A stretch of DNA of 64,000 nt from an uncultured Actinomycetota bacterium. GTDB lineage: Bacteria; Actinomycetota; Acidimicrobiia; Spongiisociales; UBA5794. The notes beneath the pieces were generated by a model. It searched no databases and was not told where the DNA came from. It saw only the letters and a list, made by a program, of their open reading frames with translations. Within the stretch, counting starts at the first letter, position 1. Every line of letters starts with the position of its first letter. This document shows, in pieces, positions 14,658-62,314 of the stretch. The position numbers and the translations under genes were made by a program. Location: contig CAWEEG010000057.1 in NCBI GenBank assembly GCA_963808015.1, forward strand, positions 10,867-74,866, written 5' to 3'.

Positions 14658-14763
14658 AGACCTAGACCACTTAGACCCGAGACGCTAGACAAGACCGCCG
14701 CGGCCAAGATGTCTCGTGTCTCGAGTCTCGTGTCTCGGGTCTCGTGTCTCGTGTCTCGGTCTC
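14658..14763. repeat. Bipartite inverted heptamer array, copy 1
   Basis: Degenerate AGACNN(N) arm at 14658-14696, short spacer, then about 8 GTCTCGN units at 14711-14763 abutting the ahcY stop. Confidence 0.85.
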
Positions 14764-16011
14764 CTACGTTCCTTCTTCCCACGACTCCAGGTACTTCGCT
14801 TGCTCTTCGGTCAGTGTCTCGAGCGTCGCGCCCATCGCGGCGAGCTTGAGACGGGCAACGTCTTCGTCGAGTTCACGCGGCAGGGTGTAGACATCCGGCG
14901 GCAGGTCACCGCCTCCGTCCACGAGCCACTCAGCCGCAAGAGCTTGGTCGGCGAACGACATGTCCATGACGTCGGCGGGATGCCCTTCGGCGGCGCCGAG
15001 GTTCACCAGCCTGCCTTCGGCCACCACGATGATCCGCCGACCATCGGCCAGTTCATACTCCTCGAGGTTGTCGCGAATCTCCCTACGGGCAACGGCCATC
15101 CCGTCGAGTCCCTTGAGATCCAGTTCAACGTCGAAATGCCCGGCGTTGGCAAGGATCACGTTGTCCTTCATGACGGCGAAGTGCTCGGGTCGGAAGATGT
15201 GAATGTCGCCCGTAGCGGTAAGGAACACGTCTCCGACCGGGGCGGACTCCGCGGCCGTCATCACCCGGTACCCCTCCATCGCCGCAGAGAGGGCGCGGAT
15301 CGGGTCAACCTCGATCACAACAACGTTCGCACCGAGACCCGCCGCACGGCGGGCGATACCCCACCCGCAATCACCGAATCCTGCCACGACCACCGTTCTG
15401 CCTGCGAAAAGGATGTTGGAGGCCCGGAGGATCCCGTCAAGAGAGGACTGTCCGGTCCCGTGCCGGTTGTCGAAGAGGTGTTTCGTCGCAGAGTCGTTGA
15501 CCGCGACCACCGGGTACCGCAGCACACCGGCGGCTGCCATCGCCCTGAGGCGAAGGACACCCGTGGTCGTCTCCTCGAGTCCCCCAAGGATCGGCTGAGT
15601 CGTTCGCTCCCTGTGCAGGACCGTTGTGGTATCCGCCCCGTCATCGAAAACGATGTGCGGCTCGGTATCGAGGATCGCGTTGATGTGCCGGTAGAACGTC
15701 TCCGAGTCCTCCGCTCGGACGGCATAGACGGGGATGCCGTCGTCGACGAGAGCCGCGGCGACATCATCCTGTGTCGACAGCGGATTCGATGCACAGAGCA
15801 CCACCTCCGCTCCCCCGGCACGCAGCGTCTTCATGAGCACCGCAGTCTCGGTGGTGACGTGCATACACGCCGCAACCCGAATACCTTCGAGGGGGCGTTC
15901 CGCCTCGAAGCGCTCTCGAATCGTCGCAAGGACCGGCATCCTGCGATCGGCCCAGGCAATCCTTTGGTGTCCCTCTCCGGCGAGGGTTGGATCGGCGATG
16001 TCGTAGTTCAC
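14764..16011 (-). CDS. ahcY: Adenosylhomocysteinase
   Basis: ASNPLSTQDD, EETTTGV, KHLFDNRHGTGQS, NAGHFDVE, EGRLVNL, GHPADVMDMSF. Confidence 0.97.
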   Translation of the reverse strand: MNYDIADPTLAGEGHQRIAWADRRMPVLATIRERFEAERPLEGIRVAACMHVTTETAVLMKTLRAGGAEVVLCASNPLSTQDDVAAALVDDGIPVYAVRAEDSETFYRHINAILDTEPHIVFDDGADTTTVLHRERTTQPILGGLEETTTGVLRLRAMAAAGVLRYPVVAVNDSATKHLFDNRHGTGQSSLDGILRASNILFAGRTVVVAGFGDCGWGIARRAAGLGANVVVIEVDPIRALSAAMEGYRVMTAAESAPVGDVFLTATGDIHIFRPEHFAVMKDNVILANAGHFDVELDLKGLDGMAVARREIRDNLEEYELADGRRIIVVAEGRLVNLGAAEGHPADVMDMSFADQALAAEWLVDGGGDLPPDVYTLPRELDEDVARLKLAAMGATLETLTEEQAKYLESWEEGT

Positions 16012-17001
16012 GGCTTTCCTTTCGCGAGCATGATCTTGAATTCCTCGAGTGTTTCAACGGGTGTCGGATCGACGCCTGCGTCCTCGGCCATGAAGACGGA
16101 GGCGACATCCCCAACGACGGCAAGGCTGAAGAACCGCGCCAACGGATCGATCCCGGCAGACCGAACCTCACCGACCCGGCGCACATTGCCGAACAGGACC
16201 GTTCCGCACAGATCGAGGCGTCTCACCACAGCGGGGTGATCCCCGGAATCCCGGAGGTAGACCAGCCCGAACCCTCCGCTGGCCTCAGGGCGCCAACCTT
16301 CGAGTTCGTTGTGGTTCATTTCCGGCACGGTCCCCGAAAAGGCCGGGGCTTTGGTGTTCTCGTTGATCTGAGTCTTCCAGCGATACGCTGCGGTAGCGCC
16401 GACGCCGCGGCCTCCGTAGATGACTGCGGTGCGGTTCGCGAGACCGGCTGCGATATCTCTGCCGAGCACGAACGCTCCGCCTTCGCCCCCATCGAGGAGC
16501 TGCTCGACCGTGTCCGCCGCTTCGTCCAAGGCTCTGTCGACCGAGGAGAGTTGACCGGCGGCGGCCAGCATCGCAGCCACGGCTGCGGTCTGAAAGCCAA
16601 CCCCGGCTCGTGGCTGGAGGCCACCGGGGACCTGGGCATAGGGCAGGCCACGATCGGATGCGATCTCGGCGAGACGCCCACCCGATGCCACCGCGGCAAT
16701 GGAGAGCCCCTCGGAGATCGCAGCGTCTACGCCGGAGAGCACCTCTTCGGTGTTGCCGCTGTAGGAGACCGCAATCACCGAGGCACCGCTGTCGGCAGCC
16801 CAGTTCGGCAACCCATAACCACGATGAACGACCATGGGCACCCGCGGTGAGGCGGCCTGGGTCGCGACCGTCGCGGCCATGGCCGAACCGCCCATGCCAA
16901 GCAGCACGATCGGTCCGTCGGTTCGAAGCGGCTCGAGTTCGAGCCCGGTGCCCCACCGAAGCTGTTCGGGCAGGCTCGAGAATGTCATTGATCATCGTCA
17001 T
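16008..17001 (-). CDS. Bifunctional phosphoglucose/phosphomannose isomerase (SIS domain)
   Basis: GMGGSA, SYSGNTEE, RWKTQINENTK, PEMNHNE. Track ORF starts at 16988; ATG 17001 is plausible with an indel. Confidence 0.9.
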
Positions 17002-17180
17002 CGTTCTGCGGGGGTGGCTTCTTCGATCAACATCACCGGTATGCCCTCCCGTACCGGGTATTGGAGGCCGCAGTTCGCGCACACCAGGGCCGGAGGTTCG
17101 AGACGCTCCTTCAGCGTGCCCGCGCAAGATGGGCACTGCATGATCTCAAGCAGATCTTGATCGATCAGATGGTCGGTCAC
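16998..17180 (-). CDS. Trm112-family protein
   Basis: LLEIMQCPSC...C..C...YPVREGIPVML. Confidence 0.9.
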   Translation of the reverse strand: MTDHLIDQDLLEIMQCPSCAGTLKERLEPPALVCANCGLQYPVREGIPVMLIEEATPAER

Positions 17181-18514
17181 GTTCCCTCCTCGATGATGGA
17201 AGCCACAGCGGCGACAAGTTCGTCAACGCCGGCGGCATCGGGGGCCTCCGCATTGAGCCTCAGCTTCGGTTCGGTATTCGATGGTCGCAGATTGAACCAG
17301 CGGTCACCGAGATCAACGGTGAGCCCATCGAGATGGTCGATCGCCGCATCACCGAACGCATCTGCAACGGCGGCGGTTGCGGCTTCCTGATCGACACGTC
17401 GTAGTTGATCTCGCCGCTGCCGACGTAGGGCTCGTAGTCGGCTCTCATCTCCGACAGGGGCCTCCCGTCCTCGGAGAGCACCTGCATCAGCACAAGCAGT
17501 GCGAGGATCCCGGAGTCTGCCCGGTAGTTGTCCCTGAAGTAGTAGTGGCCCGAGTGTTCGCCACCGAAAACGGCTCCCGTCTCTTTCATCACTTGCTTGA
17601 TGAACGAGTGGCCGACCCTTGTTCGCACGGGGGTTCCACCGGCTGCCAGCACTCGTTCGGGGACTGCCTTCGAACAGATGAGATTGTGGACGATGGAGGC
17701 GCCGGCCTCGCGGCTGAGGAACCAGTCGGCAATGAGCGCGGTCGTGGTGGATCCGGGAAGCGGAACACCCTGATCGTCGACAAAGAACGCACGATCGGCG
17801 TCTCCGTCGAATGCGACCCCGAGATCGGGGCGTTCGAGGTCCATCAACGACAGCAAGTCGGCAAGGTTCTCGGGCCGCAGGGGATCCGCCGGATGATTCG
17901 GGAATGTCCCGTCGGGTTCCAGGTAGAGCCCGATCAAGCGCGCGGGAAGACGATCGAACACCGATGGCAGGGCGATACCCGCCATCCCGTTGCCGCCGTC
18001 GGCCACAACCGTCAGCGATGCGAAAGCGTCGGCATCGACCACCGTGAAGAGATGGTCGACGTAGCCCTCGAGGATCCCCACTTCTTCAACGGAGCCCGGC
18101 GTGGCCGCGCCCGGCTGCGGGCGCAATGCGAGCTGCCTTGACCTCCCGAAGCCCGGACTCTTCGCCAACGGGAGCCGCACCGGCGAGGCAGAACTTCAGC
18201 CCGTTGTACTCAGGGGGGTTGTGTGAGGCAGTCACGATGACACCGGGAAGGTCCATCGATCCGGAGACGAAGTAGAGCGCATCGGTAGTGATCTCACCGA
18301 GTTCGGCGACATCAACCCCGGCGCTGGTGATCCCGTCGATGAGCGCAGCCGCGATCGAGGGTGACGAGATCCTGCAATCGCGTCCAACGGCGATCCGGTC
18401 GACACCGGCGAAGACGGCGAATGCATACCCAGCTGCACGTGCCACGGTCTCGTTGATCTGGGACGGATAGAGTCCGCGGACGTCGTAGGCCTTGAAGATG
18501 GTGTCGAGTTCCAT
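17177..18514 (-). CDS. manB: Phosphomannomutase/phosphoglucomutase (indels near 18125 and 17392)
   Basis: IFKAYDVRG, TASHNP, FDGDADR, GGEHSGHYYF; the C-terminal RPSNTEP motif is in a third frame. Confidence 0.93.
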
Positions 18515-18588
18515 GCCAGGATTGTACGGTCGGTCGTGTGCAGGCCGGGTTCCTGTTTTCCCACGCCCTTCCTACACTCACGTTCACC

Positions 18589-19296: not shown

Positions 19297-19331
19297 CGGC
19301 GAAGAGGTCGATGCGCTGAAGCGCGAAGCGC

Positions 19332-27494: not shown

Positions 27495-28455
27495 GAACGA
27501 GGCCATTCAAGGCTCGAAGTCGACATATTCCAATCCTTTCGCCGTTCTGCTCGCCGGCGGAGTCGGCGGAGCACGCACGGCACGGTCCCTACGGACCCGG
27601 CTCACTGCGGCGCAGATGACGGTTGTCGGCAACGTCGGGGACGACGACCACATGTACGGGGTGCCGGTGTCAGCCGACCTCGACACGCTGGTGTACACAC
27701 TCGCCGGGATCGAAGGACCCGAGGGTTGGGGTATCCGTGGCGACACGTTCACGGTGATGGATCATCTCCAGTCGCTCGGCGTTGACACGTCATTCCGGCT
27801 GGGCGATCGTGACCTATCGATGTGTCTTCTCCGATCGCAGTGGCTCACGTCCGGAGGAACCCTCTCCGGCGCCACAACATCGATCAGGGCCGGACTCGGC
27901 GTCGACACGCCGGTTCTCCCCGCCTCGGACGACAGAATCCGCACACGCATCCGAACCGTCGAAGGTTCGTGGCTGTCGTTTCAGGAGTACTTCGTCGAAC
28001 GTGGCCATCGAGACGAGGTCGCCGAGATCGAGTACGCCGGCGCCGAGAGCGCCGAGCCGGCCCCGGGAGTCATCGAGGCGATCGAATCCGCGTCCATTGT
28101 CGTGATCGCCCCTTCGAACCCTCCGCTCTCGATCCGACCCATCCTCGAAGTACGGGCGATCGCTCGCGCCGTAGCTGAACATCGCAAGGTCGTAGCCATC
28201 AGCCCGCTCTTTGGCGGGAGAGCTCTGAAAGGCCCGGCCGATCGTGTGATGGCTTCGCTCGGCTACCCGAGCGGGAACGCCGGCGTAGCCGCCGCGTACG
28301 ACGGCTTGATCACGGATCTCGTCATCGACGCAGGCGACGCGTCGGACACCGACCAGCTCTCCGAGTCCGTCGATGTTCACATCACCGACACACACCTGGC
28401 CTCACACGACTCGTCTCAACGTTTTGGCCGATGGTTCGAGCGGACTTTCACATGA
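27493..28455 (+). CDS. cofD: 2-phospho-L-lactate transferase (F420 biosynthesis)
   Basis: LAGGVGGAR, NVGDD, DLDTLVYTL, FRLGDRD, FQEYFV, PSNPPLSI, KGPAD. Start uncertain. Confidence 0.95.
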   Translation: MNEAIQGSKSTYSNPFAVLLAGGVGGARTARSLRTRLTAAQMTVVGNVGDDDHMYGVPVSADLDTLVYTLAGIEGPEGWGIRGDTFTVMDHLQSLGVDTSFRLGDRDLSMCLLRSQWLTSGGTLSGATTSIRAGLGVDTPVLPASDDRIRTRIRTVEGSWLSFQEYFVERGHRDEVAEIEYAGAESAEPAPGVIEAIESASIVVIAPSNPPLSIRPILEVRAIARAVAEHRKVVAISPLFGGRALKGPADRVMASLGYPSGNAGVAAAYDGLITDLVIDAGDASDTDQLSESVDVHITDTHLASHDSSQRFGRWFERTFT

Positions 28456-29147
28456 GCATCGAGATCTTCCCCATTCACGGGATTCCCGAAATCGCCCCAG
28501 GGGATGACCTTGCGGCGATCATCCTGCGCGGCCTGGCGGCCTCCGACCTTTCTCTGATCGACCGCGACGTTGTGGTCGTCACCCACAAGGTCGTCTCCAA
28601 GGCGGAAGGTCGGATCGAGGCCGCTGTGGACGACGCCGAGTATCGGCGGCTGGCCGAACGTGAGGCGCGAGCGATCCTTCGCCGTCGCGGAGATCTCATC
28701 ATCGCCCAGACCGAACACGGTTTCATCTGTGCCAATGCCGGCGTCGATCGGTCCAATGTTCCAGACGGGCACGCGGTACTCCTGCCTATCGACTCCGATC
28801 GGTCAGCTCATGGCATCCGGGTGAAGCTCGAACGGGCGACCGGGGCGACGGTCGCCGTCGTGGTCACGGACACGTTCGGCCGGCCATGGCGACGAGGCCT
28901 CGTCGACGTCGCGATCGGCGTCTCGGGCCTCCCGGCCATCCTCGACCTGCGCGGAAGCCCCGACGCACACAATCGCACAATGGATGTGACCGAGATCGCC
29001 GTCGTCGATGAGATCGCAGCCGCAGCCGATCTTGTGATGGGCAAGGCAGACGCAATCCCCGCTGCCGTGGTCCGCGGCATCGACCTCATCGGCGACGGAC
29101 GCGCCACCGACCTGATCCGCCCCCCCGAAGAGGACATGTTTCGATGA
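28452..29147 (+). CDS. cofE: Coenzyme F420-0:L-glutamate ligase
   Basis: GIPEIAPGDDL, KVVSKAEG, CANAGVDRSN, DTFGRPWRRG, DMFR. Confidence 0.95.
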   Translation: MSIEIFPIHGIPEIAPGDDLAAIILRGLAASDLSLIDRDVVVVTHKVVSKAEGRIEAAVDDAEYRRLAEREARAILRRRGDLIIAQTEHGFICANAGVDRSNVPDGHAVLLPIDSDRSAHGIRVKLERATGATVAVVVTDTFGRPWRRGLVDVAIGVSGLPAILDLRGSPDAHNRTMDVTEIAVVDEIAAAADLVMGKADAIPAAVVRGIDLIGDGRATDLIRPPEEDMFR

Positions 29148-29274
29148 GACCCGAGATCAGAGACCCGAGATCAGAGACCCGAGACCAAATCCGTTGTGAC
29201 GTCGCTTCTCTCGTGTCGAAACTCATGTCTGCGATCTCCTGTCTCATGTCTCGAGTCTCTCGTCTCGGGTCTCG
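29146..29274. repeat. Bipartite inverted heptamer array, copy 2
   Basis: GAGACCC/GAGATCA x6 (29146-29187) starting within the cofE stop; GTCTCNN arm at about 29222-29274 ending 2 nt before the next ATG. Confidence 0.88.
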
Positions 29275-29276
29275 CC

Positions 29277-30158
29277 ATGCCTGAGCTTCCTGAGATCGAG
29301 GCGTATCTGCACGCGCTGCGGCCGCGAGTGGTTGGGTCGGAGCTTCAACGGGTGAGAATCCAGAGTTTCTCGGTGCTCAAGACATACGACCCCCCGATTG
29401 ACGCCGTCGCCGCCGTAGGTGTTGACGGTGTTGGACGCCTGGGGAAACGGATCGTGTTTCACCTCGGCGACGGCCTGCACATCGTGGTTCACCTGATGGT
29501 GGCCGGCCGACTTGCATGGCTCGCTCCCGACGCAGCGATCCCACGCCGCTCAGGGTTGGCAGCGTTCGACTTCACGGATGGCACGTTGCTTCTCACCGAG
29601 GCCGGATCGAAGCGAAAGGCCTCGATTCATCTTGTAGACGACGACGGCCTGGCGGATCTCGATCCCGGCGGCCGCGAGATCACCGACCTCAGCGTCGAAG
29701 AGTTCGGAGAGCGCCTTGCCAGAGAGCGCCATGCCCTCAAGCGGACGCTCACCGATCCCCGCCTGTTCTCCGGAATCGGTGGCGCCTTCGCCGACGAGAT
29801 ACTCTGGGCGGCCCATCTCTCGCCGACGCAAATGAGCACCAACCTCGATCCGGACGAAGTAGATCGCCTCTACGGCGCAACCATCAACACGCTGGCCCGG
29901 TGGACAAACCTCCGCGTCGAGGAGGTCGGCGACGGTTTCCCGACGAAGGTCACGGCGTTTCATCCTGACATGGCGGTTCACGGGAAATACGGCGAACCGT
30001 GCCCCGAGTGTGGTGCACCGGTGCAACGGATCGTTCACGTCGGCCGGGAGACGAACTACTGCGCCGGATGCCAGACCGGCGGACGGATCCTGGCCGACCG
30101 AGCCCTCTCACGGCTCCTTAAAGACGACTGGCCGAAACACCTCGACGACACGATCTAG
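29277..30158 (+). CDS. Fpg/Nei-family DNA glycosylase
   Basis: MPELPE start, HLMVAG, SGIG..FADEILW, C-terminal CPECG...YCAGCQ zinc finger. Confidence 0.93.
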   Translation: MPELPEIEAYLHALRPRVVGSELQRVRIQSFSVLKTYDPPIDAVAAVGVDGVGRLGKRIVFHLGDGLHIVVHLMVAGRLAWLAPDAAIPRRSGLAAFDFTDGTLLLTEAGSKRKASIHLVDDDGLADLDPGGREITDLSVEEFGERLARERHALKRTLTDPRLFSGIGGAFADEILWAAHLSPTQMSTNLDPDEVDRLYGATINTLARWTNLRVEEVGDGFPTKVTAFHPDMAVHGKYGEPCPECGAPVQRIVHVGRETNYCAGCQTGGRILADRALSRLLKDDWPKHLDDTI

Positions 30159-30283
30159 TGCCGTGTCCACCAACCTTTGCGCTGTTCTGCCGGCCAGGGA
30201 CGCCGCTCGCGGCGTCCTCGTCCTTGCGACCAACGCCCCTAGCTCGACATCGACACCTCGAACGCTGGTGGACACGGCACTAG
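30155..30283. mobile_element. MITE-like element with 18-bp perfect terminal inverted repeats including CTAG
   Basis: CTAGTGCCGTGTCCACCA (30155-30172) and TGGTGGACACGGCACTAG (30266-30283); internal hairpin GGACGCCG-ctcg-CGGCGTCC. Confidence 0.75.
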
Positions 30284-48449: not shown

Positions 48450-49523
48450 TCAGTCAACGAATCGAATCGCTCGCGAAGAACGGTTGAGACGATCTACGCC
48501 GCCATCGGATGCAACAACGATGTCCTCGATCCGCATCCCCCAGCGGTCCGGGAGATAGATGCCGGGCTCGATGGAAAAGGCCATACCCGCTTCGATCACC
48601 TGGGTGTTGCCCTTTACGACGTAGGGCTGTTCGTGTGCGTCGAGACCGATCCCATGGCCGGTTCGGTGGATGAAGAACGCTCCGTATCCCGCCTCGTCGA
48701 TGATGGTTCGGGCTGCGGCGTCGATCGACTCTGCGGTCACGCCGGGGCGGACTGCAGCGATCGCCGCCTTCTGGGCGGAGAGAAGCACCTCGTAGGCGTC
48801 CCCAAAACCGTCTGGCGACTCTCCGACACAGTACATCCGCGTGGTATCTGAGCCGTAGCCACGGACACGGCCGCCGAAGTCGACCACAATTGCGTCGCCC
48901 GGACGGATCGTTCGGTGCGACGCTTCGTGGTGGGGTGACGCTCCGTTGGGGCCGGACGCCACGATCGCAAACGACACCGAATCGTGCCCGGCAGCGAGCG
49001 TCATGTCGGAGACGATGCGTGAGACCTCGCGTTCCGTCCGGCCGGAGAAGCGCACACCCCGAAGTTCGTCTGCGACGTGATCGACACCATGCGCCGCGTC
49101 GCGCAGAGCGGCGACCTCATCGGCCTCCTTGACCACCCGGAGCGGAGCCATGAGCGGCTCGGCGTCCACGAACGTTGCTCGGGGCAGCCGGGCTTGGAGG
49201 GCGATGAGGAACGACGCCCACATCTGGTCCCCGATCGCGATCGTCCCCTTCTCGGGGAGCATCGCAGCCATCAGTGCGTACGGGTCAGCCGTTTCGGCCC
49301 ATGGGTGTACGTCGACGAACGTCTCGACCCGCGGTGCCTCAAGCTCAGGGACGAACAATGCGACTTCGCCCTCCGCCCGGAGAACAAGTGCGGTGATCCG
49401 CTCGAGCGGGAACGCGCGATATCCGGCGAGATACGGCAGGTCGGACCCGACCGAGACAACCAACGCGTCAACTCCGTGTTCCCGCATTGCCCGCTGAGCC
49501 GCATCGATTCGGCCGGCCGTCAT
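48450..49523 (-). CDS. Xaa-Pro peptidase (M24)
   Basis: [32 protein letters not shown]. Confidence 0.93.
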
Positions 49524-51172
49524 CGTGCGGCCTCCAACGAGTCACGTGCGTGGTACGACGACCGCACGAGCGGCCCCGCTTCGACATGAGACAGCCCGAG
49601 CCGCCGGCCCTCGTCCGCGTAGCGCTGGAACTCGTCTGGGTGAACGTAGCGGTCGATCGGCCGATGATGAGCCGTGGGCCGGAGGTACTGACCGATGGTC
49701 ACGATGTCGACGCCGACCGCCCGAAGGTCAGCGAGCGTTCCGAACACCTCGTCCTCGGTCTCTCCCATCCCGACGATCAACCCCGATTTGACGACGCCCG
49801 CCGGATTGACCCACTTGGCTCGGGCAAGGAGTGACAGCGACCGGGCGTAGTTCGCAGCCGTGCGGATATCGCGTTGAAGACGCAGCACCGTCTCTGTGTT
49901 GTGGTTCAAGACCGCAGGTTTGGCCGCCATCACCACTTCGAGGGCCGCGAGGTCCCCCTTAAAGTCAGGGATCAGCACCTCGACCTCGCAATCGGGCAAC
50001 CGTTGCCGGATCTCCTCAATCGTGTCGGCAAAGACACTCGCTCCCCCGTCTGGGAGGTCGTCGCGATTCACCGACGTCAACACGGCGTGACGCAGCCCCA
50101 TCTGTTCGACCGCTGCGGCCGCCCTCCGGGGCTCGTCGGTATCGACGGTTCCTGGCCGGCCGGTCGTGACGTCGCAGAACGCGCACGCTCTGGTACAGGT
50201 GTCACCGAGCAGCATGAGCGTCGACGTTCCGGACTCCCAACACTCGTAGATGTTTGGACATTGGGCCTCTTCACACACGGTGTTCAGATCCATCCCGCGC
50301 ATCAGCTTCTTCAGATCCCGGAACCCCTCAGTGGAGAGATCCGCCCGAACCCGCATCCACTCCGGCTTCTCCGGTTCACCCGGGAGGACACCTCGGACGG
50401 CAATAGGGGTCTCTCCCGGTCGACGAGAGGAGAAGACACCGGCCGCGACCATCGCGTCGACGTCGTATGGGCGAGCCTGCTCGCGGCGAGCGAAGGTCCC
50501 CAGTTGAATCTCGGGCACACCTCCAAACACGTCCACAGCGTGCGGCATCAACGCCTCGACCACCGATTCCATCGGAATTGGTGCGCCAAGGATCTCAGCA
50601 AGAGACGTGACCGGCCTGCCGACGATCCCACACGGCACGATGTGGTCGAAGTACGCAAGATTGGGAGCCACGTTGATGGCGAAGCCGTGCATGGACACTC
50701 CCGACGCCACCCGCACGCCGATCGCCCCGACCTTGCCCCGGTCGGTCCAGACTCCGGTGAATCCTTCCTCCGCCCACGCGGCAACACCCAGATCCGCGAG
50801 TGTTGCGATGAGCATCGCCTCGATTCTGCGGAGATGTCCCACCGAGTCCCATCCCCCGGCAAAGGCCGGGACTCTCACGATCGGATAGCCAACCAACTGC
50901 CCCGGCCCGTGATACGTGATATCGCCACCGCGGTCGGTGAAGACCAGGTTCGCGCTGATCGAGGCAAGCTCGGATGGTTCGATCTTCAGGTTCGAACCAT
51001 CACCATTTCGTCCAACGGTGTACGTGTGCGGGTGCTCGAGCAGCAGGAGGTAGTCGTCTTCCATCCGGCCGACCGACCGCGCCTCCCAGACGGCGCGTTG
51101 GAGATCCAGCCCCTCGTTGTAGGCAACCCGCCCGAGCCACCGGACCCGGAACCGCGGATCGTCTGGGGTCAT
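49520..51172 (-). CDS. lipA: Fused octanoyltransferase LipB - lipoyl synthase LipA
   Basis: [28 protein letters not shown], then [26 protein letters not shown], all in one frame. Confidence 0.94.
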
Positions 51173-52684
51173 CTGAGCTCCTGGTCCCAATCCCACGTCT
51201 CGAGGTTCTTCCGGATACGGTCAAGGAAGAGAACAGCCGTTGAGCCGTCGAATGCCCGGTGATCCCAGGTGAGTCCCAGATATCCGATGTGCCGCACGGC
51301 GATCATGTCGGTTCCGTCTGGGAGTGACACAACCGCAGGCCGCTTCGCGACGGTGTCCGTCGACAGAATCGCGACGTTCGGAAGGTTGATGATCGGAGCG
51401 CTCATGAACGAGCCGAACGGCCCAGGGTTTGTGATCGTGAATGTGCTCCCGGAGATCTCGTCCGGAGTGACATCTCCGTCTCGAGTCTTGACCGCCATCG
51501 TTCGGATGTTCCGCGCAAGGCGCTTCAGCGTTTGCCCATCTGCATCGCGCACCGTCGCCACCAGCAAACCCTTGGACGCCAGGTCGACCGCGACTCCGAG
51601 ATGGACCGCCTTGTGGTCGATACGTGTCCCCGCCTCGAGGTCGAGTGAGCTGTTCACGACCGGGTAGGCCGCAAGGGCATCCATGGTCGCTCGAGCGATG
51701 AACGGCAGATAGGTAAGCGAGAATCCCTCGTCGGCCTTGAACTGCTCGCGCTGGGCACGCCTCGCCTGTTCGACTCGTTCGTAGTCGACCTCCACCGACG
51801 TCCAGACGTGCGCGGCAGTCTGTTTTGCCCGAATCATGTGTTCCGCAATGGTGCGTCTGAGCCGTGGAAGCTCTGAGACCTCTTCATCAGCACCGGTTGT
51901 GATCGTCACCGTTGTTGCGGCAGGAGCCTTCGGGGCGGGTGTCGGCGCCGTCTCGGCTAGCCGCTGCCGCTTCGACCGGCGCTGGTGGTTGAGTCGGCGC
52001 AGGTGCGGGTGCCACAGCTGCAGCCGGCGGAGGTGCCGGCGCGGCGGCCGGCTCGGACACCGGTTCCGGCTGCACTGGTGCAGGCGGAGGCGTCGCGATG
52101 TAGACCTCGATGTCCTTGCGAGTGATACGACCACCGTCACCGGAGCCGGTCACGAGATCGAGATCGACGTCGTGCTCTGCCGCGAGGCGGCGCACCACAG
52201 GAGACAACACGGCTCGACGAGAACCTGACGGAGCCGCGGCGGCGGGTTTCGGACGAGGCGCGACTGGGCTCGGTGTCGGATCCGGTGTCCCGGTGGGGCC
52301 CATTGCCGGTGTGCCGGTGGGGCCCATCGCCGCGGCCGGTGCTGATGTCTCGGCTACCGGGGCAGGGGCGGGTGCTGGGTCCGGTGCGGGCGCAGGAGCC
52401 GGCTCTGGAGCAGGCGCCGGTTCTGGAGCGGGAGCCGCAGCATCCATGGATTCGCCGATCACGGCGATTGGGGTGCCCACCTCAACGGTCTCTCCGGCGG
52501 CCACGAGAATCTCGGTGACCACACCGGACGCGGGTGACGGCATCTCCGTATCAACTTTGTCGGTGGAGATCTCAACCAGCACCTCGTCCTCCACCACGGA
52601 GTCGCCTATGTTCTTGGCCCACGAGAGAATGGTTCCCTCGGTAACCGTCTCACCAAGTTGCGGCATCGTCACGGTCAGGGACAT
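51169..52684 (-). CDS. 2-oxoacid dehydrogenase E2 dihydrolipoamide acyltransferase (indel near 51960)
   Basis: TDKVDTE lipoyl domain, [16 protein letters not shown]3-binding domain, DHRAFDG catalytic motif. Confidence 0.94.
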
Positions 52685-52724: not shown

Positions 52725-54096
52725 CTAGTGAAGGGGTCGTCCGGCGGCGGCGAGCAACGTCTCACCGATACCTTCTGAGATGGTTGGGTGGGCATGGATG
52801 AACGCGGCCGCTTCTTCGGGTAGGGCTTCCCATCCGACAGCGAACATCAACTCGTGAATGATCTCGCCGGCGACTGGATCAACAACCGTGGCTCCGAGGA
52901 TCGGACCGTCCTTCTCCGCGACGATCTTCACGGTCCCACCCGTCTCACCGTGAATGATGGCTCTGCCGACGCCACGCATGCCGTGCGTCGTGACGGCGAC
53001 GTCGAAACCCTGCTCGATTGCCTGAGCCTCGGTCAGCCCAACTGAGGCGGCCTCCGGATGGGTGTAGACGATCATCGGGATAGCTCGATAGTCGACGGCG
53101 GCAACGGCGCCGGTAGCGATATGGGTGACCGCCGCAATCGCTTCCGCGAACGCAACATGGGCGAGCTGCGGTGTGCCGGCGACGATGTCGCCTACTGCGT
53201 AGACCCCAGGAACGGCGGTCTGCATCGTCTCCAGATTCACCGGAACAAACCCGCGGTCGGTCGCGATGCCTGCGGTTTCGAGTCCGATCCCGTCGGTGAC
53301 GGGTGCTCGGCCGACGGCAACGAGTACAACATCGACCTCAACCGTTTCGTCGCCGACCGGAACCGCCACGCCGGTGTGAGAGACACTCGGTGCCCCAACT
53401 TGTATGCCGGTCTTGACGTTGATCCTCTTCTTGCGGAAGGCACGTCCAAGGGCCTTGGCCGCCTCCGGCTCCATGCCGGGGATGATCTGGTCGAGAGCTT
53501 CAAAGAGGTGCACCTCGCTCCCCACATCGGCCAGCATCGAAGCAAACTCGGCACCGATCGCTCCGGCGCCAATCACCGCAACCCGACGCGGTTGACGTGT
53601 CCAGTCGAGTGCCTGGTCACTGGTGACGATTCGTTCGCCGTCGATCTCGTATCCGGGGATTGATCGTGGGACGGAACCCGTGGCAACAATCGTCGCCCGT
53701 GCCGGGAGAGTTGTCGTGGAGCCGTCAGTGAGCCGTGACCTCGACCCCGCCATCGACGATGCGACCTGTGCCTTCGTGAACGACGACACCACGGGTCTTG
53801 AGCAACCCCGACAACCCGCTCACGAGCCCGTCAACGATCTGGTTCTTGCGGGAGAGGGCGGCCGCCCAATCAAGCGTGGGTTCGGCCGAACGCACGCCGA
53901 ACTCCGCGGACCGGGCGACGGTCTGGTAGACGGACGCCGTCTCGAGCCATGCCTTTGCCGGAATGCACCCGCGAATCAGACATGTGCCACCCACCCGTTC
54001 CTTCTCAACGAGCGCGACGGAAAGCCCGAAGTTGTGGGCGTAGAGCGCGGCGGCGTAGCCGCCGGGTCCCCCACCGATGATGACGACGTCGTGCAC
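52725..54096 (-). CDS. lpdA: Dihydrolipoyl dehydrogenase (indel near 53727)
   Basis: [32 protein letters not shown]. Confidence 0.95.
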
Positions 54097-54173
54097 CGCT
54101 CCCTCCAAATGAGCCCAGGTCGAGACTAGCCCGCCCACGCTTGTTGTCGAGACGTCGGTACGATCGCATCGCA

Positions 54174-54260
54174 GTGCAGACCCGCTACCTCATCCTCGCA
54201 TCCCTCATTGCCGGCATGGCGATTCTGATCGCCGCGGCCGTGTGGTTTGCTGGGATCTAG
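54174..54260 (+). CDS. Putative 28-aa single-TM microprotein MQTRYLILASLIAGMAILIAAAVWFAGI
   Basis: TACGAT -10 at 54159-54164, GTG 9 nt later, high-GC3 codons, one hydrophobic helix; fills the intergenic gap. Confidence 0.65.
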   Translation: MQTRYLILASLIAGMAILIAAAVWFAGI

Positions 54261-56193: not shown

Positions 56194-56254
56194 CAGCAGC
56201 AGGCTACCGACAAACCGTCACCGAGTGGAGCGCCCCCTGGTAGCTTCCACCACC

Positions 56255-56827: not shown

Positions 56828-56837
56828 GAGGAGCCCC

Positions 56838-57479: not shown

Positions 57480-57488
57480 GAACGCACC

Positions 57489-58418: not shown

Positions 58419-58422
58419 TCCT

Positions 58423-58956
58423 GTGTCCGGCACCACCTTCGACCGGTCGGCGATCCTCGCGGCTCGAGCCGAACGAGACCACTTCCTCGCGGAGCACTAC
58501 GCCTCACCGATCCCCGAAGAAGACCGTGCCGGTTTCGCCGGTGCCGACTACTACGAACCGGACGAGCGATTCGTCTTCGTCGGATCGTTCCGGGAGATTG
58601 CGGCCCAGGTTGCGGTCCCATCATCAACCGGGACCGTGAGCGACTACCGCAGCGTCGGAGTCATCCAGATCACCATCGATGGACATCCCTACGGGTTGAC
58701 GGTCCTCGACGATGGGGACGGTGGCACGTTCCTCGCGTTCGGGGACGCGACCAACGGCCACACCACCTACGGCGGGGGCCGGTACGTCGGCGTCGAGATT
58801 GGCGAGGATGGCAGCGCCATCGTCGACTTCAACCGGGCCGCGAACCCGTATTGTGTCTACGACGAGGAGTACTCCTGCCCGCTCCCTCCCGCCGGCAACA
58901 CCATCGCCGGTCCGATCGAGGCCGGCGAACGGATGTACCACGCGACGTCCGGCTGA
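58423..58956 (+). CDS. DUF1684 protein
   Basis: FGDATNG.TTYGGGRY, DFNRAANPYCVY...SCPLPP. Confidence 0.9.
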   Translation: MSGTTFDRSAILAARAERDHFLAEHYASPIPEEDRAGFAGADYYEPDERFVFVGSFREIAAQVAVPSSTGTVSDYRSVGVIQITIDGHPYGLTVLDDGDGGTFLAFGDATNGHTTYGGGRYVGVEIGEDGSAIVDFNRAANPYCVYDEEYSCPLPPAGNTIAGPIEAGERMYHATSG

Positions 58957-58997
58957 ACCGGGGAGATACGGGTCCGAGTCTCCCTATTCTCGATCAC

Positions 58998-59750
58998 ATG
59001 CCAGAACTTCTCGTCATCGACGATCTCCACGCTTCAGCGGAGGGTATTGAGATCCTCAAGGGTGTCGACCTCACGGTCAAAGCCGGTGAAATCCACGCGA
59101 TCATGGGCCCGAACGGGTCCGGTAAATCGACCCTCGCCAACGTCCTGCTCGGCAGCCCGACGTACACCGTGACCCGCGGAACGATCACCTATCAGGGTGA
59201 GGACGTCACTGAGGCGACTGCCGACGTTCGCGGGCGTGCCGGCATGTTCCTAGGTTTCCAGTACCCGGAAGAGATCCCGGGCGTGTCCGTGGTCAACTTC
59301 CTCCGCACCGCACTATCGAGCCGGACCGGCGTTGACTACACCATCCTCGAACTGCGCCTCAAAGTGGTTGAAGCCATGCGGGAACTCGATATGGATCCGG
59401 CGTTCGCCGATCGGTACCTCAATGAGGGTTTCTCCGGCGGAGAACGCAAACGAAACGAGGTTCTGCAGATGGCGGTCCTGGAACCGGACCTCGCCGTCCT
59501 CGACGAGACCGACTCCGGTCTGGACATCGATGCCCTCAAGATTGTCGCCGAAGGAGTAGGCCGCCTGCGCAACGATGAGCGTGGTTTCGTGATCATCACG
59601 CATTACCAGCGGATGCTCGACTACATCACCCCAGACGTCGTCCATGTGTTCCTCGACGGCCGAATCGTCGCGTCCGGCGGACCGGACCTCGCCGATAAGA
59701 TCGAGGATGCCGGCTACGACCACTATCGGAGTGGAGTCGCGGCGAATTGA
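58998..59750 (+). CDS. sufC: Fe-S assembly ATPase SufC
   Basis: MGPNGSGKST, FQYPEEIPGV, GFSGGERKRNE, LDETDSGLD, ITHYQR. Confidence 0.96.
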   Translation: MPELLVIDDLHASAEGIEILKGVDLTVKAGEIHAIMGPNGSGKSTLANVLLGSPTYTVTRGTITYQGEDVTEATADVRGRAGMFLGFQYPEEIPGVSVVNFLRTALSSRTGVDYTILELRLKVVEAMRELDMDPAFADRYLNEGFSGGERKRNEVLQMAVLEPDLAVLDETDSGLDIDALKIVAEGVGRLRNDERGFVIITHYQRMLDYITPDVVHVFLDGRIVASGGPDLADKIEDAGYDHYRSGVAAN

Positions 59751-60979
59751 TCGATCTCCGGCACCTCCGCGACGACTTCCCAATTCTGGGTCGCGAGGTC
59801 AACGGGTGGCCCCTCACCTACTTGGATTCCGCCGCGACCACGCAGAAACCGATCCAGGTCCTCGACGCGGTTGACACCTACTACCGGACGATCAACTCCA
59901 ACGTGCATCGCGGGGCACACACCCTCTCTGCCGAGTCGACCGATGCCTACGAAGGTGCCCGATCGAAGGTCGCATCGTTCATCAACGCAGCGTCATCGAG
60001 TGAAGTCGTCTTCTCTCGCGGGGCCACCACCGCCTCGACCACATCGCGTACGGGTGGGGGCTCAATCACCTCTCGGAAGGCGACCGGGTGGTGCTCACCG
60101 TCATGGAACACCACGCCAACGTTGTCCCCTGGCAACTGCTTGCCAGATACACCGGCATCGAACTCGTATATCTCCACGCTCGACGAACAGTTTGAGGTGG
60201 ACCTCACCGGCCTCGACGATCTTCTGGACGATCGAGTGAAGGTGGTCGCCATCTCCGGTATGTCGAACGTCACCGGGACGTTGGGGCCGGTGAAGGCGCT
60301 CGTCGACGCCGCTCGTTCGGTCGGCGCACTCATTGTGGTCGACGCCGCACAACTCGTTCCCCACTCCCCCACCGATGTACAAGAACTGGACGCCGACTTC
60401 CTCGTCTTCTCCGGCCACAAGATGCTTGGACCGACAGGGATCGGCGGCATGTGGGGCAAGATGGAGCGTCTCGAAGAGATGGAACCAACGGAAGGCGGCG
60501 GGGAGATGATCGCCGATGTGGGTCTCTACGAATCCCGCTGGGCGCCCGTCCCGCAGAAGTTCGAGGCCGGCACTCCACCGATCGCCCAAGCCGTCGGCCT
60601 CGGCGCCGCAGTCGACTACCTCACAGCCGTCGGCATGGAGACGGTTCGAGACCATGAGCGCTCGATCACCGGGTATGCGCTCAAGCGACTCGCGGAGATC
60701 CCGGACCTCACCGTCTACGGCCCGAGTGATCCCGCCAACCGGGGAGGAGCCGTCAGCTTCTCACTGGCCGATATTCACGCTCACGACATCGCGACCATCC
60801 TCGACCAGTTCGGCGTCGAAGTGCGAGCCGGCCACCACTGCGCGAAACCCCTCATGCGATACCTCCAGGTTCCCGCAACCGCGCGCGGTTCGTTCTATCT
60901 CTACAACACCACCGACGATGTCGACCGACTCGTCGAGAGTCTGCTCGAAGCACGGACGGTGTTCGGGCTCGGATCCTGA
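59747..60979 (+). CDS. sufS: Cysteine desulfurase SufS (compensating indels about 60035-60172)
   Basis: YLDSAATTQKP, SGHKMLGPTG, RAGHHCA; the MEHHAN motif lies in an alternative frame. Confidence 0.94.
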   Translation: MIDLRHLRDDFPILGREVNGWPLTYLDSAATTQKPIQVLDAVDTYYRTINSNVHRGAHTLSAESTDAYEGARSKVASFINAASSSEVVFSRGATTASTTSRTGGGSITSRKATGWCSPSWNTTPTLSPGNCLPDTPASNSYISTLDEQFEVDLTGLDDLLDDRVKVVAISGMSNVTGTLGPVKALVDAARSVGALIVVDAAQLVPHSPTDVQELDADFLVFSGHKMLGPTGIGGMWGKMERLEEMEPTEGGGEMIADVGLYESRWAPVPQKFEAGTPPIAQAVGLGAAVDYLTAVGMETVRDHERSITGYALKRLAEIPDLTVYGPSDPANRGGAVSFSLADIHAHDIATILDQFGVEVRAGHHCAKPLMRYLQVPATARGSFYLYNTTDDVDRLVESLLEARTVFGLGS

Positions 60980-61010
60980 GACACACGTCCCCGGGTATCG
61001 TCTCCCCTGC

Positions 61011-61463
61011 ATGTCATCCCTCGACGAGCTCTACCGCCAGGTCATCCTCGACCACTACCGAAACCCCCGGCGCCGGGGAACCCTGAGCGGACCCCATGTT
61101 CACGCAGAGGGACTCAACCCTTCATGCGGTGACGAGTTCTCGATCGACATACAGATCGAAGACGGCGTCATCACCGACGCAAGGATTCAGGGTCAAGGCT
61201 GTTCGATCTCACAAGCCTCGGGTTCCATGATGACCGATGCCGTTGTCGGCAAGACGATCGCCGATGCCCGGGACCTCACTGCGATCTTCAAGCTGATGAT
61301 GGGTATCGACGAGGGCGACAATCCGCTCGACCCGGAAAGGCCCGGCGCCGTGCTCGGAGACCTCGAAGCGCTACAGGGAGTACGGAAGTTCCCGATTCGC
61401 ATCAAGTGCGCCGATCTGCCGTGGACAACACTGGCGGACGCCCTCGACAGAGCGGAGTCCTGA
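61011..61463 (+). CDS. sufU: Fe-S assembly sulfur-transfer protein SufU
   Basis: LYRQVILDHYRNP, NPSCGD, GCSISQAS, RIKCA. Confidence 0.95.
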   Translation: MSSLDELYRQVILDHYRNPRRRGTLSGPHVHAEGLNPSCGDEFSIDIQIEDGVITDARIQGQGCSISQASGSMMTDAVVGKTIADARDLTAIFKLMMGIDEGDNPLDPERPGAVLGDLEALQGVRKFPIRIKCADLPWTTLADALDRAES

Positions 61464-61515
61464 AGGCCGACGCTGTTTCGAGTCACCCGTCCGAACCGAT
61501 CGGTACGATTGCCCC

Positions 61516-62097
61516 ATGGACTTCACACCGAACACCGCGCTTGTTGTCGTCGATGTGCAGAACGACTTCGCTGATCCCGACGGCTCGCTCTTCGTCGCCG
61601 GCGGGCACGCAGCTGTTCCGTTCATCAACCAACTGATCGAAACCGCTCAGGAGGCTTCGGCAACTGTCGTGTACACCAGAGATTGGCACCCAGACACAAC
61701 ACCCCACTTCGCCAAGGATGGTGGCATCTGGCCGGTGCACTGTGTCGGCGACACGTGGGGTTCCGACTTCCACCCGAATCTCGTGGTGTCAGGACCTGAG
61801 ATCAAGAAGGGCACCGGCGGTGAGGACGGCTACTCCGGATTCTCAATCCGCGACCCCGAAACCGGCGCACAATCGGCAACCGGCCTCGAAGACCTCCTAC
61901 GTGATGTTGACATCACCGATGTCGTTGTTGTGGGTCTCGCCACCGACTACTGCGTGAAAGAGACGGCGCTCGACGCGGTCCGTCTCGGCTTCACAACAAC
62001 CGTGCTCGCCGACGGGATTCGTGCGGTGAACCTGAACCCCGGGGACGGAGCGCGGGCGATCGCGGAACTCGTGAGCTCCGGCGTGGAGGTTGAGTGA
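61516..62097 (+). CDS. pncA: Nicotinamidase/pyrazinamidase
   Basis: VDVQNDF, DWHP, WPVHCV, YSGF, GLATDYCV. Confidence 0.92.
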   Translation: MDFTPNTALVVVDVQNDFADPDGSLFVAGGHAAVPFINQLIETAQEASATVVYTRDWHPDTTPHFAKDGGIWPVHCVGDTWGSDFHPNLVVSGPEIKKGTGGEDGYSGFSIRDPETGAQSATGLEDLLRDVDITDVVVVGLATDYCVKETALDAVRLGFTTTVLADGIRAVNLNPGDGARAIAELVSSGVEVE

Positions 62098-62314
62098 GTA
62101 GCAAGTAGTGAGTAGCAAGTAGCAAGACAGGGCCAAGACACGAGACACGAGATCCGAGACTCGAGACAGGACGCGGAGCGGCCTTCGTCGACTCGTTGTC
62201 CGTTTCGGTTGTCTGGCTGTCAGTTCCCGGCTTCCGAGAATGCCCCAGTTTCGTGTCTCAAGATTTCGGGTCTCAGGTCTCGGGTCTCTCGTCTCGAGTC
62301 TCGGGTCTCGGGTC
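62094..62314. repeat. Bipartite inverted heptamer array, copy 3 (plus GTGAGTA/GCAAGTA array), cut by IS3
   Basis: GTGAGTA/GCAAGTA x5 from the pncA stop; AGACNNG x5 at about 62136-62170; spacer; GTCTCNN x7-8 at about 62255-62314, ending at the IS terminus. Confidence 0.88.

Follow-up and report, generated by a model that had tools for sequence, protein, structure and literature searches.

Inverted tandem-heptamer cassettes without ORFs between housekeeping genes in a 64-kb stretch of bacterial DNA

Tandem 7-base repeats are a widespread and poorly understood type of bacterial repeat. In eukaryotes, foldback transposons have inverted termini composed of short tandem repeats, with a coding loop either present or absent. 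Excerpts from a report on Xanthomonas (PMC4692102) describe inverted heptamer pairs in two genomes, 70 in one and 75 in the other. According to these excerpts, the pairs are preferred between aligned ORFs and under-represented between divergent ORFs, are located within 50 bp of stop codons, and are mostly transcribed; 83% of them keep their position between species. The intervening sequence of Coxiella contains tandem heptamers (GACAGAT) in strain-dependent numbers, and RNase III cleavage is mapped within its stem, as stated in passages of PMC4990558. In hmw1A of Haemophilus influenzae, an (ATCTTTC)n array makes up one side of a long hairpin in the 5'-UTR. Parts of PMC12721329 describe that this hairpin is cut by RNase III, and that RNase III is also needed for the change of repeat number.

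The window analyzed here is one whole stretch of 64 kb. In it, ORF-less tandem-heptamer hairpins fill three gaps separating housekeeping genes (Table 1). The architecture (GAGACNN)n, spacer, and (NNGTCTC)n is found at exactly three loci, here called cassettes 1 to 3. The pattern GTCTCNNGTCTC has 17 matches in the window, all confined to the three cassette loci, while 100 dinucleotide shuffles of the window gave a mean of 0.49 and at most 3. Tandem Repeats Finder reports period 7 for each of the three cassettes; the sole other period-7 row in the 64 kb (19309-19331, 3.1 copies) is at the score floor. A scan for GTCT/AGAC clusters detected 11 clusters with at least three occurrences, and all of those with at least four are the three cassette loci. 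The purine-rich arm comes first in 3/3 cassettes. All 20 units in the GTCTC arms of the three cassettes keep the 5-base core unbroken, and positions 6-7 are free to vary. Exact unit counts and base-level accuracy are uncertain because several housekeeping genes are split or frameshifted in the window. The spacers are approximately 10-87 nt long, and no common sequence was found when the loops were compared. No target-site duplication was seen on reading the cassette flanks. At the gathering score of Rfam, only tmRNA (366-723) is recognized in the window, and the cassettes match no family. There is no rRNA in the 64-kb window; the cassettes are flanked by protein genes.

Table 1. Positions of the cassettes and their flanking genes in the window.
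Feature	Position	Strand	Remarks
ComF-like gene	13898-14617	-	Downstream of cassette 1; weak NCBIfam match, E 2.1e-06, below curated cut-off
Cassette 1 purine-rich arm	14641-14700		7 AGAC cores, spacing irregular, badly degenerate
Cassette 1 spacer/loop	14701-14710		Short, ~10-15 nt
Cassette 1 pyrimidine-rich arm	14711-14763		Regular, 8 GTCTC units, GTCTCG plus one variable base
ahcY, adenosylhomocysteinase	14764-16011	-	Upstream gene of cassette 1; TIGR00936, E 7.8e-182
cofE, F420-0:L-glutamate ligase	28431-29147	+	TIGR01916, E 2.2e-71
Cassette 2 purine-rich arm	29146-29188		6 GAGAC/GAGAT units; perfect 14-nt period x2.8
Cassette 2 spacer/loop	29189-29226		~38-52 nt
Cassette 2 pyrimidine-rich arm	29227-29274		2 degenerate and 5 clean GTCTC units
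fpg-like DNA glycosylase	29277-30158	+	Downstream of cassette 2; TIGR00577, E 2.7e-37, below curated cut-off
pncA-like nicotinamidase	61516-62097	+	Upstream of cassette 3; NF008623, E 1.2e-42, below curated cut-off
Second heptamer array, GTAGCAA/GTAGTGA type	62093-62126		~4 units, between pncA stop and AGAC arm
Cassette 3 purine-rich arm	62125-62170		6 AGAC/AGAT cores
Cassette 3 spacer	62171-62254		~85 nt, forms small stems of its own
Cassette 3 pyrimidine-rich arm	62255-62315		7-8 GTCTC units

At ahcY, cofE, and pncA, the distance from array to stop codon is 0-2 nt, and two of the three cassettes are placed between co-directional genes. The pyrimidine-rich arm of cassette 1 is flush with the stop codon of ahcY (0-1 nt away), whose protein is full length (residues 3-415 on positions 1-416 of TIGR00936); the start of the ComF-like gene is 23 nt away from the cassette arm. 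The TGA of cofE shares 2 nt with the first GAGAC unit of cassette 2. The ATG of the fpg-like gene, for which the match begins at residue 1 of the TIGR00577 profile, is 2 nt past the end of the pyrimidine-rich arm. The heptamers of the third locus start directly at the stop codon of pncA, and its composite of a GTAGCAA-type array and a GTCTC cassette recurs in two loci of other genomes (L012 and L031).

On folding, both strands of the cassettes give long imperfect stems. The arms of cassette 2 are 79% complementary over 39 nt, and those of cassette 3 are 92% complementary over 25 nt. The fold of cassette 1 has -57.4 kcal/mol on the minus strand (z = -2.1) and -58.2 on the plus strand (z = -3.2); cassette 2 has -60.7 kcal/mol on the plus strand (z = -4.3) and -68.5 on the minus strand (z = -5.6); and cassette 3 has -88.3 kcal/mol (z = -2.8). 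In the window, the variable positions 6 and 7 of one arm do not mirror those of the other as complements, and thus the stems are helices of 5-13 bp interrupted by small internal loops. Neither a sigma-70-like promoter nor an intrinsic terminator (a short G+C stem with a T-run) was found at any of the three cassettes, which is consistent with read-through transcription. The original prediction considered the three loci as one family with a fixed core and two variable last nucleotides, foldable from either strand, abutting gene ends, and akin to the STRR-type tandem heptamers of bacteria; the shared architecture, the stable folds, and the period of 7 at all three loci bear this out. Its spacer lengths of 14, 34, and 80 nt were roughly right, but it folded the GTAGCAA array into the third locus.

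The cassettes are not peculiar to the genome of the window. The four-unit GTCTCNN pattern is seen in at least 121 stretches in species genomes of many phyla, while simple arithmetic (20 fixed bases, 596 Gb) gives a chance expectation of about one match. The heptamer architecture is present in more than 100 independent assemblies and also in finished plasmids. Among the matches listed, 105 GTCTC loci have at least 200 nt on each side; 24 of them have a strict inverted partner arm within 200 nt, and 81 are unpaired. Because most GTCTC arrays elsewhere are unpaired, pairing is not obligatory for this type of repeat. The gene-free GTCTC cassettes at the listed loci start with the purine-rich arm in 18 cases versus 6 (binomial p = 0.023). 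In total, 43 inverted period-7 pairs were found in the listed loci and the window, and many of them use other heptamers, several within ribosomal-protein operons. One locus (L015) contains five cassettes with four distinct heptamer flavours within 4 kb. GAGAC is one flavour among many of a general inverted-heptamer phenomenon. Where the flanking genes on both sides are supported by a family match (n = 14), 11 pairs are co-directional, 3 are convergent, and none is divergent. In a Thermomicrobiales MAG, cassettes occupy the gaps S3/L16, L14/L24, and S8/L6 of ribosomal-protein operons, and a Saccharibacteria MAG has a cassette in the ribosomal-protein gap S8/S14.

Short-period arms embed four-helix-bundle genes (TIGR02436/PF05635) near-universally. 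All 14 genes examined adjoin short-period arrays, with period 7 in 11 cases and period 8 in three, and Tandem Repeats Finder detects arrays on both sides of 13. Complementary arms flank the ORF in nine of the 14; seven were recognized from the nearest arrays, while those of L131 and L128 were paired by hand from the array list. Of the 13 genes that have an array upstream, 10 have the purine-rich arm on the 5' side of the ORF, a polarity shared by the gene-free GTCTC cassettes. One of the 14 genes sits in an intervening sequence of 23S rRNA (LSU model, 2526.7 bits). Several others are squeezed into operon gaps of ~30-40 nt, such as cmr2/cmr3 and cas6/cas4. At one locus (L039), GTCTC/GAGAC arms enclose a four-helix-bundle gene, occupying the gap of two convergent ORFs and touching both stops; the order of its arms is the reverse of that in the window. 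The link between heptamers and TIGR02436 genes, which the original prediction had named, is real in other genomes, and its question whether some pairs enclose a small ORF is answered there by the TIGR02436/PF05635 genes, including one with GTCTC/GAGAC arms.

We lean towards the interpretation that the cassettes are heptamer-armed, ORF-less foldback hairpins, which would be transcribed and cleaved by RNase III and would change in size through slippage. Transcription would occur as part of the neighbouring operons, and the RNA may fold into imperfect duplexes of ~30-40 bp. RNase III would cut these duplexes, and the neighbouring cistrons could thereby be uncoupled or the mRNA ends set. The number of units may drift via slipped-strand mispairing, and the complementarity of the arms might be upheld either by selection on the stem or by hairpin-templated correction. 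An mRNA-processing element, proposed among the original functions, is the one with the best precedent, given the studies of RNase III on stems with heptamer arms. Points against this interpretation are the unpaired state of most GTCTC arrays elsewhere, the interruption of the stems by internal loops, and the badly degenerate purine-rich arm of cassette 1.

A neutral origin is less probable. The repeats could be by-products of polymerase slippage that were inverted by hairpin-templated (quasi-palindrome) correction, have no function, and are tolerated only where they are harmless. Heptanucleotides are reported to be the most frequent of the long simple repeats in numerous prokaryotes, and polymerase slippage has been proposed for them (Mrazek 2007, in the summary given in PMC4679880). 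A sense strand can be inferred for 26 cassettes; the sense RNA folds more stably than the antisense in 8 of them, less stably in 11, and equally (within 1.5 kcal/mol) in 7. This gives no hint of selection at the RNA level, which counts against the transcribed-hairpin interpretation and favors neutrality. The different heptamers of L015 fit a local origin and not a dispersed element, and arrays halting exactly at the coding sequence are expected if selection on the genes alone bounds them. However, slippage alone generates identical neighbours and decay alone affects all positions, whereas the window units keep the core intact and vary at positions 6-7. Also against neutrality, a single flavour is common to all three window loci, and effects on expression or processing are published for other heptamer arrays. 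The 18:6 bias in arm order hints at constraint, as does the fact that no cassette separates divergent genes.

It is improbable that the cassettes are non-autonomous relatives of a mobile module whose autonomous form has an Avd-like four-helix-bundle gene between two arms. The gene-free cassettes would then be deletion derivatives or copies generated in trans, perhaps through a reverse transcriptase and the templated addition of heptamers. The occurrence of all examined four-helix-bundle genes amid short-period arrays, in part within narrow operon gaps, and the placement of L039 flush with both stops are in favor of such a module. The family weakly matches the DGR Avd model (E 2e-08), PF05635 has been characterized as Avd-like (PMC10053308), and mobility of intervening sequences has been suspected for a long time, as mentioned in passages of PMC4990558. 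In its extended form, which is likewise doubtful, heptamer-armed hairpins would correspond in bacteria to foldback elements; an Avd-like gene would lie in the loop of the autonomous form, and the much more numerous gene-free cassettes, those of the window among them, would be its non-autonomous progeny. In this scheme, the hairpins would be copied or maintained by the four-helix-bundle protein, perhaps assisted by a host reverse transcriptase or by RNase III, with heptamer units being added from a short template. If true, intervening sequences, STRRs, and inverted heptamer pairs would have a common explanation. Against it, a 14-sequence profile run on six-frame translations (pieces of 25 aa or longer) detected no four-helix-bundle gene or remnant in the window or the spacers, and the window cassettes have no fitting reverse transcriptase or transposase with them. 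Only 2 of 80 listed array loci having 2-kb flanks contain a four-helix-bundle gene, and the empty or scar forms suggested by the original prediction are not evident from these searches. Unlike copies of an element, the loops share no sequence and the heptamers can differ within one genome; the lack of visible target-site duplications and the opposite arm order of L039 also argue against it.

Arrays bound by a protein, that is, a regulator, nucleoid, or partition protein reading GAGAC every 7 bp, are very improbable. A conserved core flanked by variable bases would suit binding, and heptamer repeats of Nostoc influence regulator binding and translation according to the abstract-level account of a preprint (10.1101/2022.06.06.494920). 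But the cassettes are at gene 3' ends and avoid divergent, promoter-bearing gaps, consecutive sites spaced by 7 bp face different sides of the helix, none of the neighbouring genes encodes a candidate binding protein, and unrelated heptamers have the same architecture in other genomes. We give almost no credence to a relic or decoy of restriction-modification at the type IIS site GTCTC, the BsmAI/Alw26I site, or to an assembly artefact. Outside the cassettes, GTCTC (86 versus 89.3 Markov-expected) and GAGAC (94 versus 93.7) are neither avoided nor enriched, which speaks against the restriction-modification idea of the original prediction. The frameshifted housekeeping genes show that assembly errors occur in the window, but an artefact is contradicted by the recurrence of the architecture in independent assemblies and finished plasmids.

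Among the known systems, REP/BIME are palindromic elements located outside genes at their 3' ends, where they can influence the fate of the mRNA, and their placement is akin to that of the window cassettes. They consist of many near-identical 20-40 bp palindromes with a conserved head, associated with a RAYT gene, whereas the arms in the window are simple 7-mers and no Y1-transposase domain was found among 64 ORFs of the 64 kb. Unlike REP/BIME and eukaryotic foldback transposons, the window has no transposase, and its loops share no sequence. The STRR heptamers and the TAACTGA repeats of Beggiatoaceae (PMC4679880) are, like the cassettes, intergenic and near start or stop codons; they have genome-specific flavours and are also found in ribosomal-protein operons. 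These arrays are described as almost all direct, with 1 of 170 sets inverted in Beggiatoa (PMC4679880), in contrast to inverted pairs at 3/3 loci in the window. The hmw1A hairpin, as far as the excerpted source describes it, has a non-repetitive, G-rich partner arm and is a phase-variation switch of an adhesin, while both arms are arrays between housekeeping genes in the window.

The 23S intervening sequences and S23p modules share with the cassettes a long stem formed by complementary, heptamer-bearing ends (Azospirillum, L126; Coxiella, in passages of PMC4990558), the purine-rich arm in the first position, and, for the cassettes presumably, insertion into transcribed DNA. The S23p module has a PF05635/TIGR02436 ORF in its loop, which the window cassettes lack, and intervening sequences are located in helix 25 or 45 of 23S rRNA and not between protein genes. 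The GGGAATC inverted pairs of Xanthomonas, in the excerpts of Rehm et al. (2015, PMC4692102), are also built from period-7 units with conserved and free positions. They likewise consist of two nearby arrays in convergent orientation, and are intergenic and near stop codons; their copy number varies, as that of the cassettes may do. Their units contain a G-tract and are interpreted in those excerpts as forming quadruplexes, preferentially with four units, whereas GAGACNN/GTCTCNN of the window has no run of three G. The cassettes probably belong to a cross-phylum class comprising the Xanthomonas heptamer pairs, the stems of 23S intervening sequences, and the arms that enclose TIGR02436/PF05635 genes.

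The three-locus architecture of the original prediction, in which a (GAGACNN)n arm, a spacer and an (NNGTCTC)n arm follow one another, is present as described in the window sequence. The window cassettes contain no ORF and belong to a cross-phylum class of foldback hairpins with heptamer arms. In Tandem Repeats Finder, all three (cassettes 1, 2 and 3) have a period of 7, and the sole further period-7 row in the 64 kb has 3.1 copies and lies at the score floor. The pattern GTCTCNNGTCTC is matched 17 times, against 0.49 expected and a largest count of 3 in 100 shuffles, and all 17 matches are confined to the three cassettes. A density scan of the window revealed no further cluster with four or more cores outside these loci. 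These statistics exclude chance for the three cassettes. The purine-rich arm (GAGAC/AGAC units) precedes the pyrimidine-rich arm (GTCTC units) in every one, whichever strand is read.

Cassette 3 is a composite of these arms and a GTAGCRA-type array. The same composite is seen in L012 (1940–1973) and L031 (around 880–920), two loci of one MAG. In cassette 3, L012 and L031, no array complementary to the GTAGCAA-type one was apparent on the opposite side.

Three genes of the window, all on the minus strand, are broken. secA (9235–12032) is divided among three overlapping ORFs, while the phosphoglucomutase-family gene pgm (17263–18571) and an lpdA-like pyridine-nucleotide-disulphide oxidoreductase gene (52728–54189) are each split in two ORFs. 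This suggests frameshifts by assembly indels, or pseudogenes. Since these split genes make indel errors likely in the window, the exact numbers of repeat units listed below may be off.

Features of the three cassettes, their predicted folds and selected genes of the window
Feature	Position	Strand	Description
Cassette 1, purine-rich arm	14641–14700		7 AGAC cores, degenerate
Cassette 1, pyrimidine-rich arm	14711–14763		8 regular GTCTC units; short spacer between arms
Cassette 2, purine-rich arm	29146–29188		6 GAGAC/GAGAT units; loop after
Cassette 2, pyrimidine-rich arm	29227–29274		GTCTC units, 5 clean and 2 degenerate
GTAGCAA/GTAGCGA-type heptamer array	62093–62126		Separate array directly upstream of the GAGAC arm of cassette 3
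Cassette 3, purine-rich arm	62125–62170		6 AGAC cores, then a loop of ~85 nt
Cassette 3, pyrimidine-rich arm	62255–62315		7–8 GTCTC units
Cassette 1, predicted fold		minus (sense)	-57.4 kcal/mol, z -2.1
Cassette 1, predicted fold		plus	-58.2 kcal/mol, z -3.2
Cassette 2, predicted fold		plus (sense)	-60.7 kcal/mol, z -4.3
Cassette 2, predicted fold		minus	-68.5 kcal/mol, z -5.6
Cassette 3, predicted fold		plus	-88.3 kcal/mol, z -2.8
ahcY	14764–16011	minus	NCBIfam; end 1 nt from cassette 1
tmRNA gene	366–723	minus	Rfam, 179 bits
smpB	2279–2746	minus	Near the window start

NCBIfam confirms the gene names originally given to the flanks. On the other side of cassette 1 from ahcY, a ComF-like gene starts 23 nt past the repeats. 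At cassette 2, the cofE TGA runs into the first unit, and the start of fpg lies 2 nt beyond the last one. The heptamers of cassette 3 are immediately 3' of the pncA stop. ahcY and cofE cover their family profiles end to end, and the profile match of fpg begins at residue 1 (NCBIfam). Given these flush stops and starts and the extent of the matches, the cassettes exactly occupy the gene gaps, with no truncation of genes. Simple scans detected neither a sigma-70-like promoter nor an intrinsic terminator at the cassettes, and an Rfam scan of the window gave no match at them, its sole match being the tmRNA gene elsewhere.

The 64 window ORFs annotated by Pfam are ordinary housekeeping genes, and no reverse transcriptase, Y1 transposase or Avd-like protein is among them. 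The window is 63% G+C and encodes cofD/cofE, a PASTA-domain penicillin-binding protein and SufU, a content that would suit Actinomycetota or Chloroflexota. In a single ORF (49523–51220, minus strand), a radical-SAM domain accompanies the catalytic domain of a lipoyl ligase (LplA/B) (Pfam), perhaps through a fusion of lipB and lipA or through an error that joined two genes. Just downstream of cassette 3 (62346–63999), NCBIfam identifies an IS30-family transposase and an IS3-family transposase fragment, the latter with a match limited to the C-terminal part of the profile.

The predicted stems are helices of 5–13 bp interrupted by small internal loops, because the 5-base core always pairs and positions 6 and 7 are not mirror-complementary between the arms. 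Fold energies gave no signal of RNA-level selection: among 26 cassettes, each with an inferable sense strand, the sense strand folds more strongly than the antisense in 8, more weakly in 11 and equally in 7. This set leaves out three convergent cassettes (L043, L051 and L070), those with no Pfam-supported flank (L060, L067, L073 and two cassettes in L071) and every locus with just 300-nt flanks (L081 onward). A fourth gene-boundary hairpin of the window (30155–30283) contains no heptamers. It is non-repetitive and fills the space separating fpg from the epimerase gene that converges on it, with a perfect 19-bp outer stem and both stop codons within its CTAG ends (-65.5 kcal/mol, z = -5.3).

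A scan of species genomes yielded at least 121 stretches of four GTCTCNN units, where about 1 is expected by chance according to our own arithmetic. The matches listed, which are neither a census nor an unbiased sample, include Verrucomicrobiota, Acidobacteriota, Chloroflexota, Cyanobacteriota, Bacteroidota, Gemmatimonadota, Planctomycetota, Omnitrophica, Saccharibacteria, Armatimonadota and others; the genome from which the window comes is absent from them. Among the matches listed, 105 loci have at least 200 nt on either side. A partner arm is found in the order GAGAC then GTCTC at 18 of them and in the reverse order at 6 (binomial p = 0.023), and the GTCTC array is unpaired at the remaining 81. 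Of the 121 arrays listed, 84 are uniform at the two free positions and 37 are mixed; the window cassettes are of the mixed, less common kind.

GAGAC is one flavour among several. Other period-7 arrays are common in the fetched loci, often as inverted pairs (Tandem Repeats Finder); 38 such pairs were counted in one pass and 43 cassettes, window included, in another, with gaps mostly of 0–125 nt. A Thermomicrobiales MAG (L015) has five cassettes with four different heptamers in 4 kb (351–3815), all in successive ribosomal-protein operon gaps: S3|L16, before L14, L14|L24, before S8 and S8|L6 (Pfam). A Saccharibacteria MAG (L006) has two (675–742 and 2739–2806), and the gap S8|S14 is again occupied by a cassette (Pfam). 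Among cassettes with family support for both flanking genes, the neighbours are co-directional in 11 and convergent in 3, and in no case divergent.

In two fetched loci, a gene is present between the arrays. In L039 (Holophagaceae MAG), a 117-aa ORF follows 13 GTCTC-core units and precedes 6 GAGAC-core units; the module takes up the whole space between two convergent ORFs and abuts the stop codon of each. L030 (Ignavibacteriales) has 8.6 AGGAGAC units 5' of a 126-aa ORF; another ORF of L030, of 135 aa, has no NCBIfam match. The L039 and L030 ORFs belong to the four-helix-bundle family TIGR02436 (E = 2.9e-29 and 5.6e-37, respectively), match PF05635 as well, and weakly match the Avd model of diversity-generating retroelements. 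Among 19 between-array ORFs compared with Pfam, the one in L039 was the sole match. TIGR02436 is reportedly tied to heptamer repeats in a database comment.

A forward test by tblastn with the L030 protein returned 30 plasmid records, 12 of which were taken for taxonomic spread; with L030 and L039, 14 four-helix-bundle genes were examined. The expectation that heptamer arrays flank TIGR02436-like genes held: short-period arrays adjoin the ORF in all 14, with a period of 7 in 11 and of 8 in 3 (L124, L128 and L130; e.g., AGGAGATA, GAGGGCAG and GAGATAGG). Arrays are on both sides in 13 of 14 (Tandem Repeats Finder). In 9, the ORF lies between complementary arms: the nearest arrays supply them in seven, and in two (L131 and L128) they were matched by hand. 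L129 and L030 have direct arrays with an additional inverted partner, and L133 has irregular arrays and adjoins an IS element. Among the 13 modules with an upstream array, 10 have a purine-rich 5' arm, often with AGGAG-like units. The purine-rich arm stands first in these 10, in 18 of the 24 GTCTC cassettes that are paired and in 3 of 3 in the window; L039 is an exception. Several four-helix-bundle genes are inside operons with gaps of ~30–40 nt; on cyanobacterial plasmids, gene and repeat arms are wedged in cmr2/cmr3 (L124, 7956–8385) and cas6/cas4 (L129, 1285–1966). In an Azospirillum lipoferum plasmid (L126), the gene is within a 23S rRNA gene and therefore represents a classical intervening sequence, with heptamer arrays as arms.

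To our knowledge, bacterial tandem heptamers have been recorded for decades with no accepted function. Heptamers are described as the commonest long simple repeats in an earlier finding summarised by MacGregor (2015, PMC4679880), who reports TAACTGA direct repeats beside start codons, some in ribosomal-protein operons. Two Xanthomonas genomes are reported to contain 70 and 75 pairs of inverted GGGAATC arrays, which prefer gaps between aligned ORFs, are rare between divergent ones, lie within 50 bp of stops and are mostly transcribed; 83% keep their position from species to species (Rehm et al. 2015, PMC4692102). The Coxiella intervening sequence is reported to contain tandem GACAGAT heptamers whose number differs among strains, and RNase III to cleave within its stem (Warrier et al. 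2016, PMC4990558). In a 5'-UTR hairpin that RNase III cuts, an (ATCTTTC)n array is described as one of the two arms, and RNase III is required for the change of repeat number (Nucleic Acids Research 2025, PMC12721329). Heptamer repeats are also reported to regulate recF and recO expression in Nostoc (preprint 10.1101/2022.06.06.494920). PF05635 is described as similar to Avd (PMC10053308), and PMC8700078 mentions four-helix-bundle proteins, not repeats. In the literature searched, no general link of S23p, TIGR02436 or four-helix-bundle proteins to heptamers was found, except in the Coxiella paper.

By analogy with such systems and by placement, RNA-level processing by RNase III appears to be the best-supported mode of action of the cassettes. 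A cassette would be transcribed together with its flanking genes, its RNA would fold into a hairpin and be cut by RNase III, and the number of units could shift by slippage. Evidence against this reading is that the sense strand folds no better than the antisense, that most GTCTC arrays elsewhere are unpaired, and that cassette 1 has a degenerate left arm. A serious rival is that the cassettes are purely neutral products of slippage; however, the intact core next to free positions 6 and 7, the bias in arm order and the way divergent gaps are avoided all point to constraint.

It is also possible that the cassettes are an "empty shuttle" form of the gene-carrying cassette. A 14-sequence four-helix-bundle profile, compared with six-frame pieces of the window and 121 loci, matched L030 and L039 alone, so the window, spacers included, gave no such gene or remnant. 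The restriction-modification role once proposed for GTCTC fails, because GTCTC and GAGAC are at expectation outside the cassettes, with no avoidance.

If RNase III processing is true, the cassettes would represent a widespread and evolvable cutting of operon transcripts between cistrons, ribosomal-protein operons included, with stem length tunable via repeat slippage. For annotation, they account for gene gaps without a Shine-Dalgarno sequence, promoter or terminator. The link to heptamers is a concrete handle on the role of Avd-like proteins outside diversity-generating retroelements. The window and the fetched loci unite three usually separate literatures, on heptamer repeats, on 23S rRNA intervening sequences and on sporadic four-helix-bundle genes. 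Cyanobacterial and Xanthomonas heptamers, intervening sequences and four-helix-bundle genes have one architecture in common: two complementary arrays, the first of them purine-rich, around a loop that may or may not contain an ORF.
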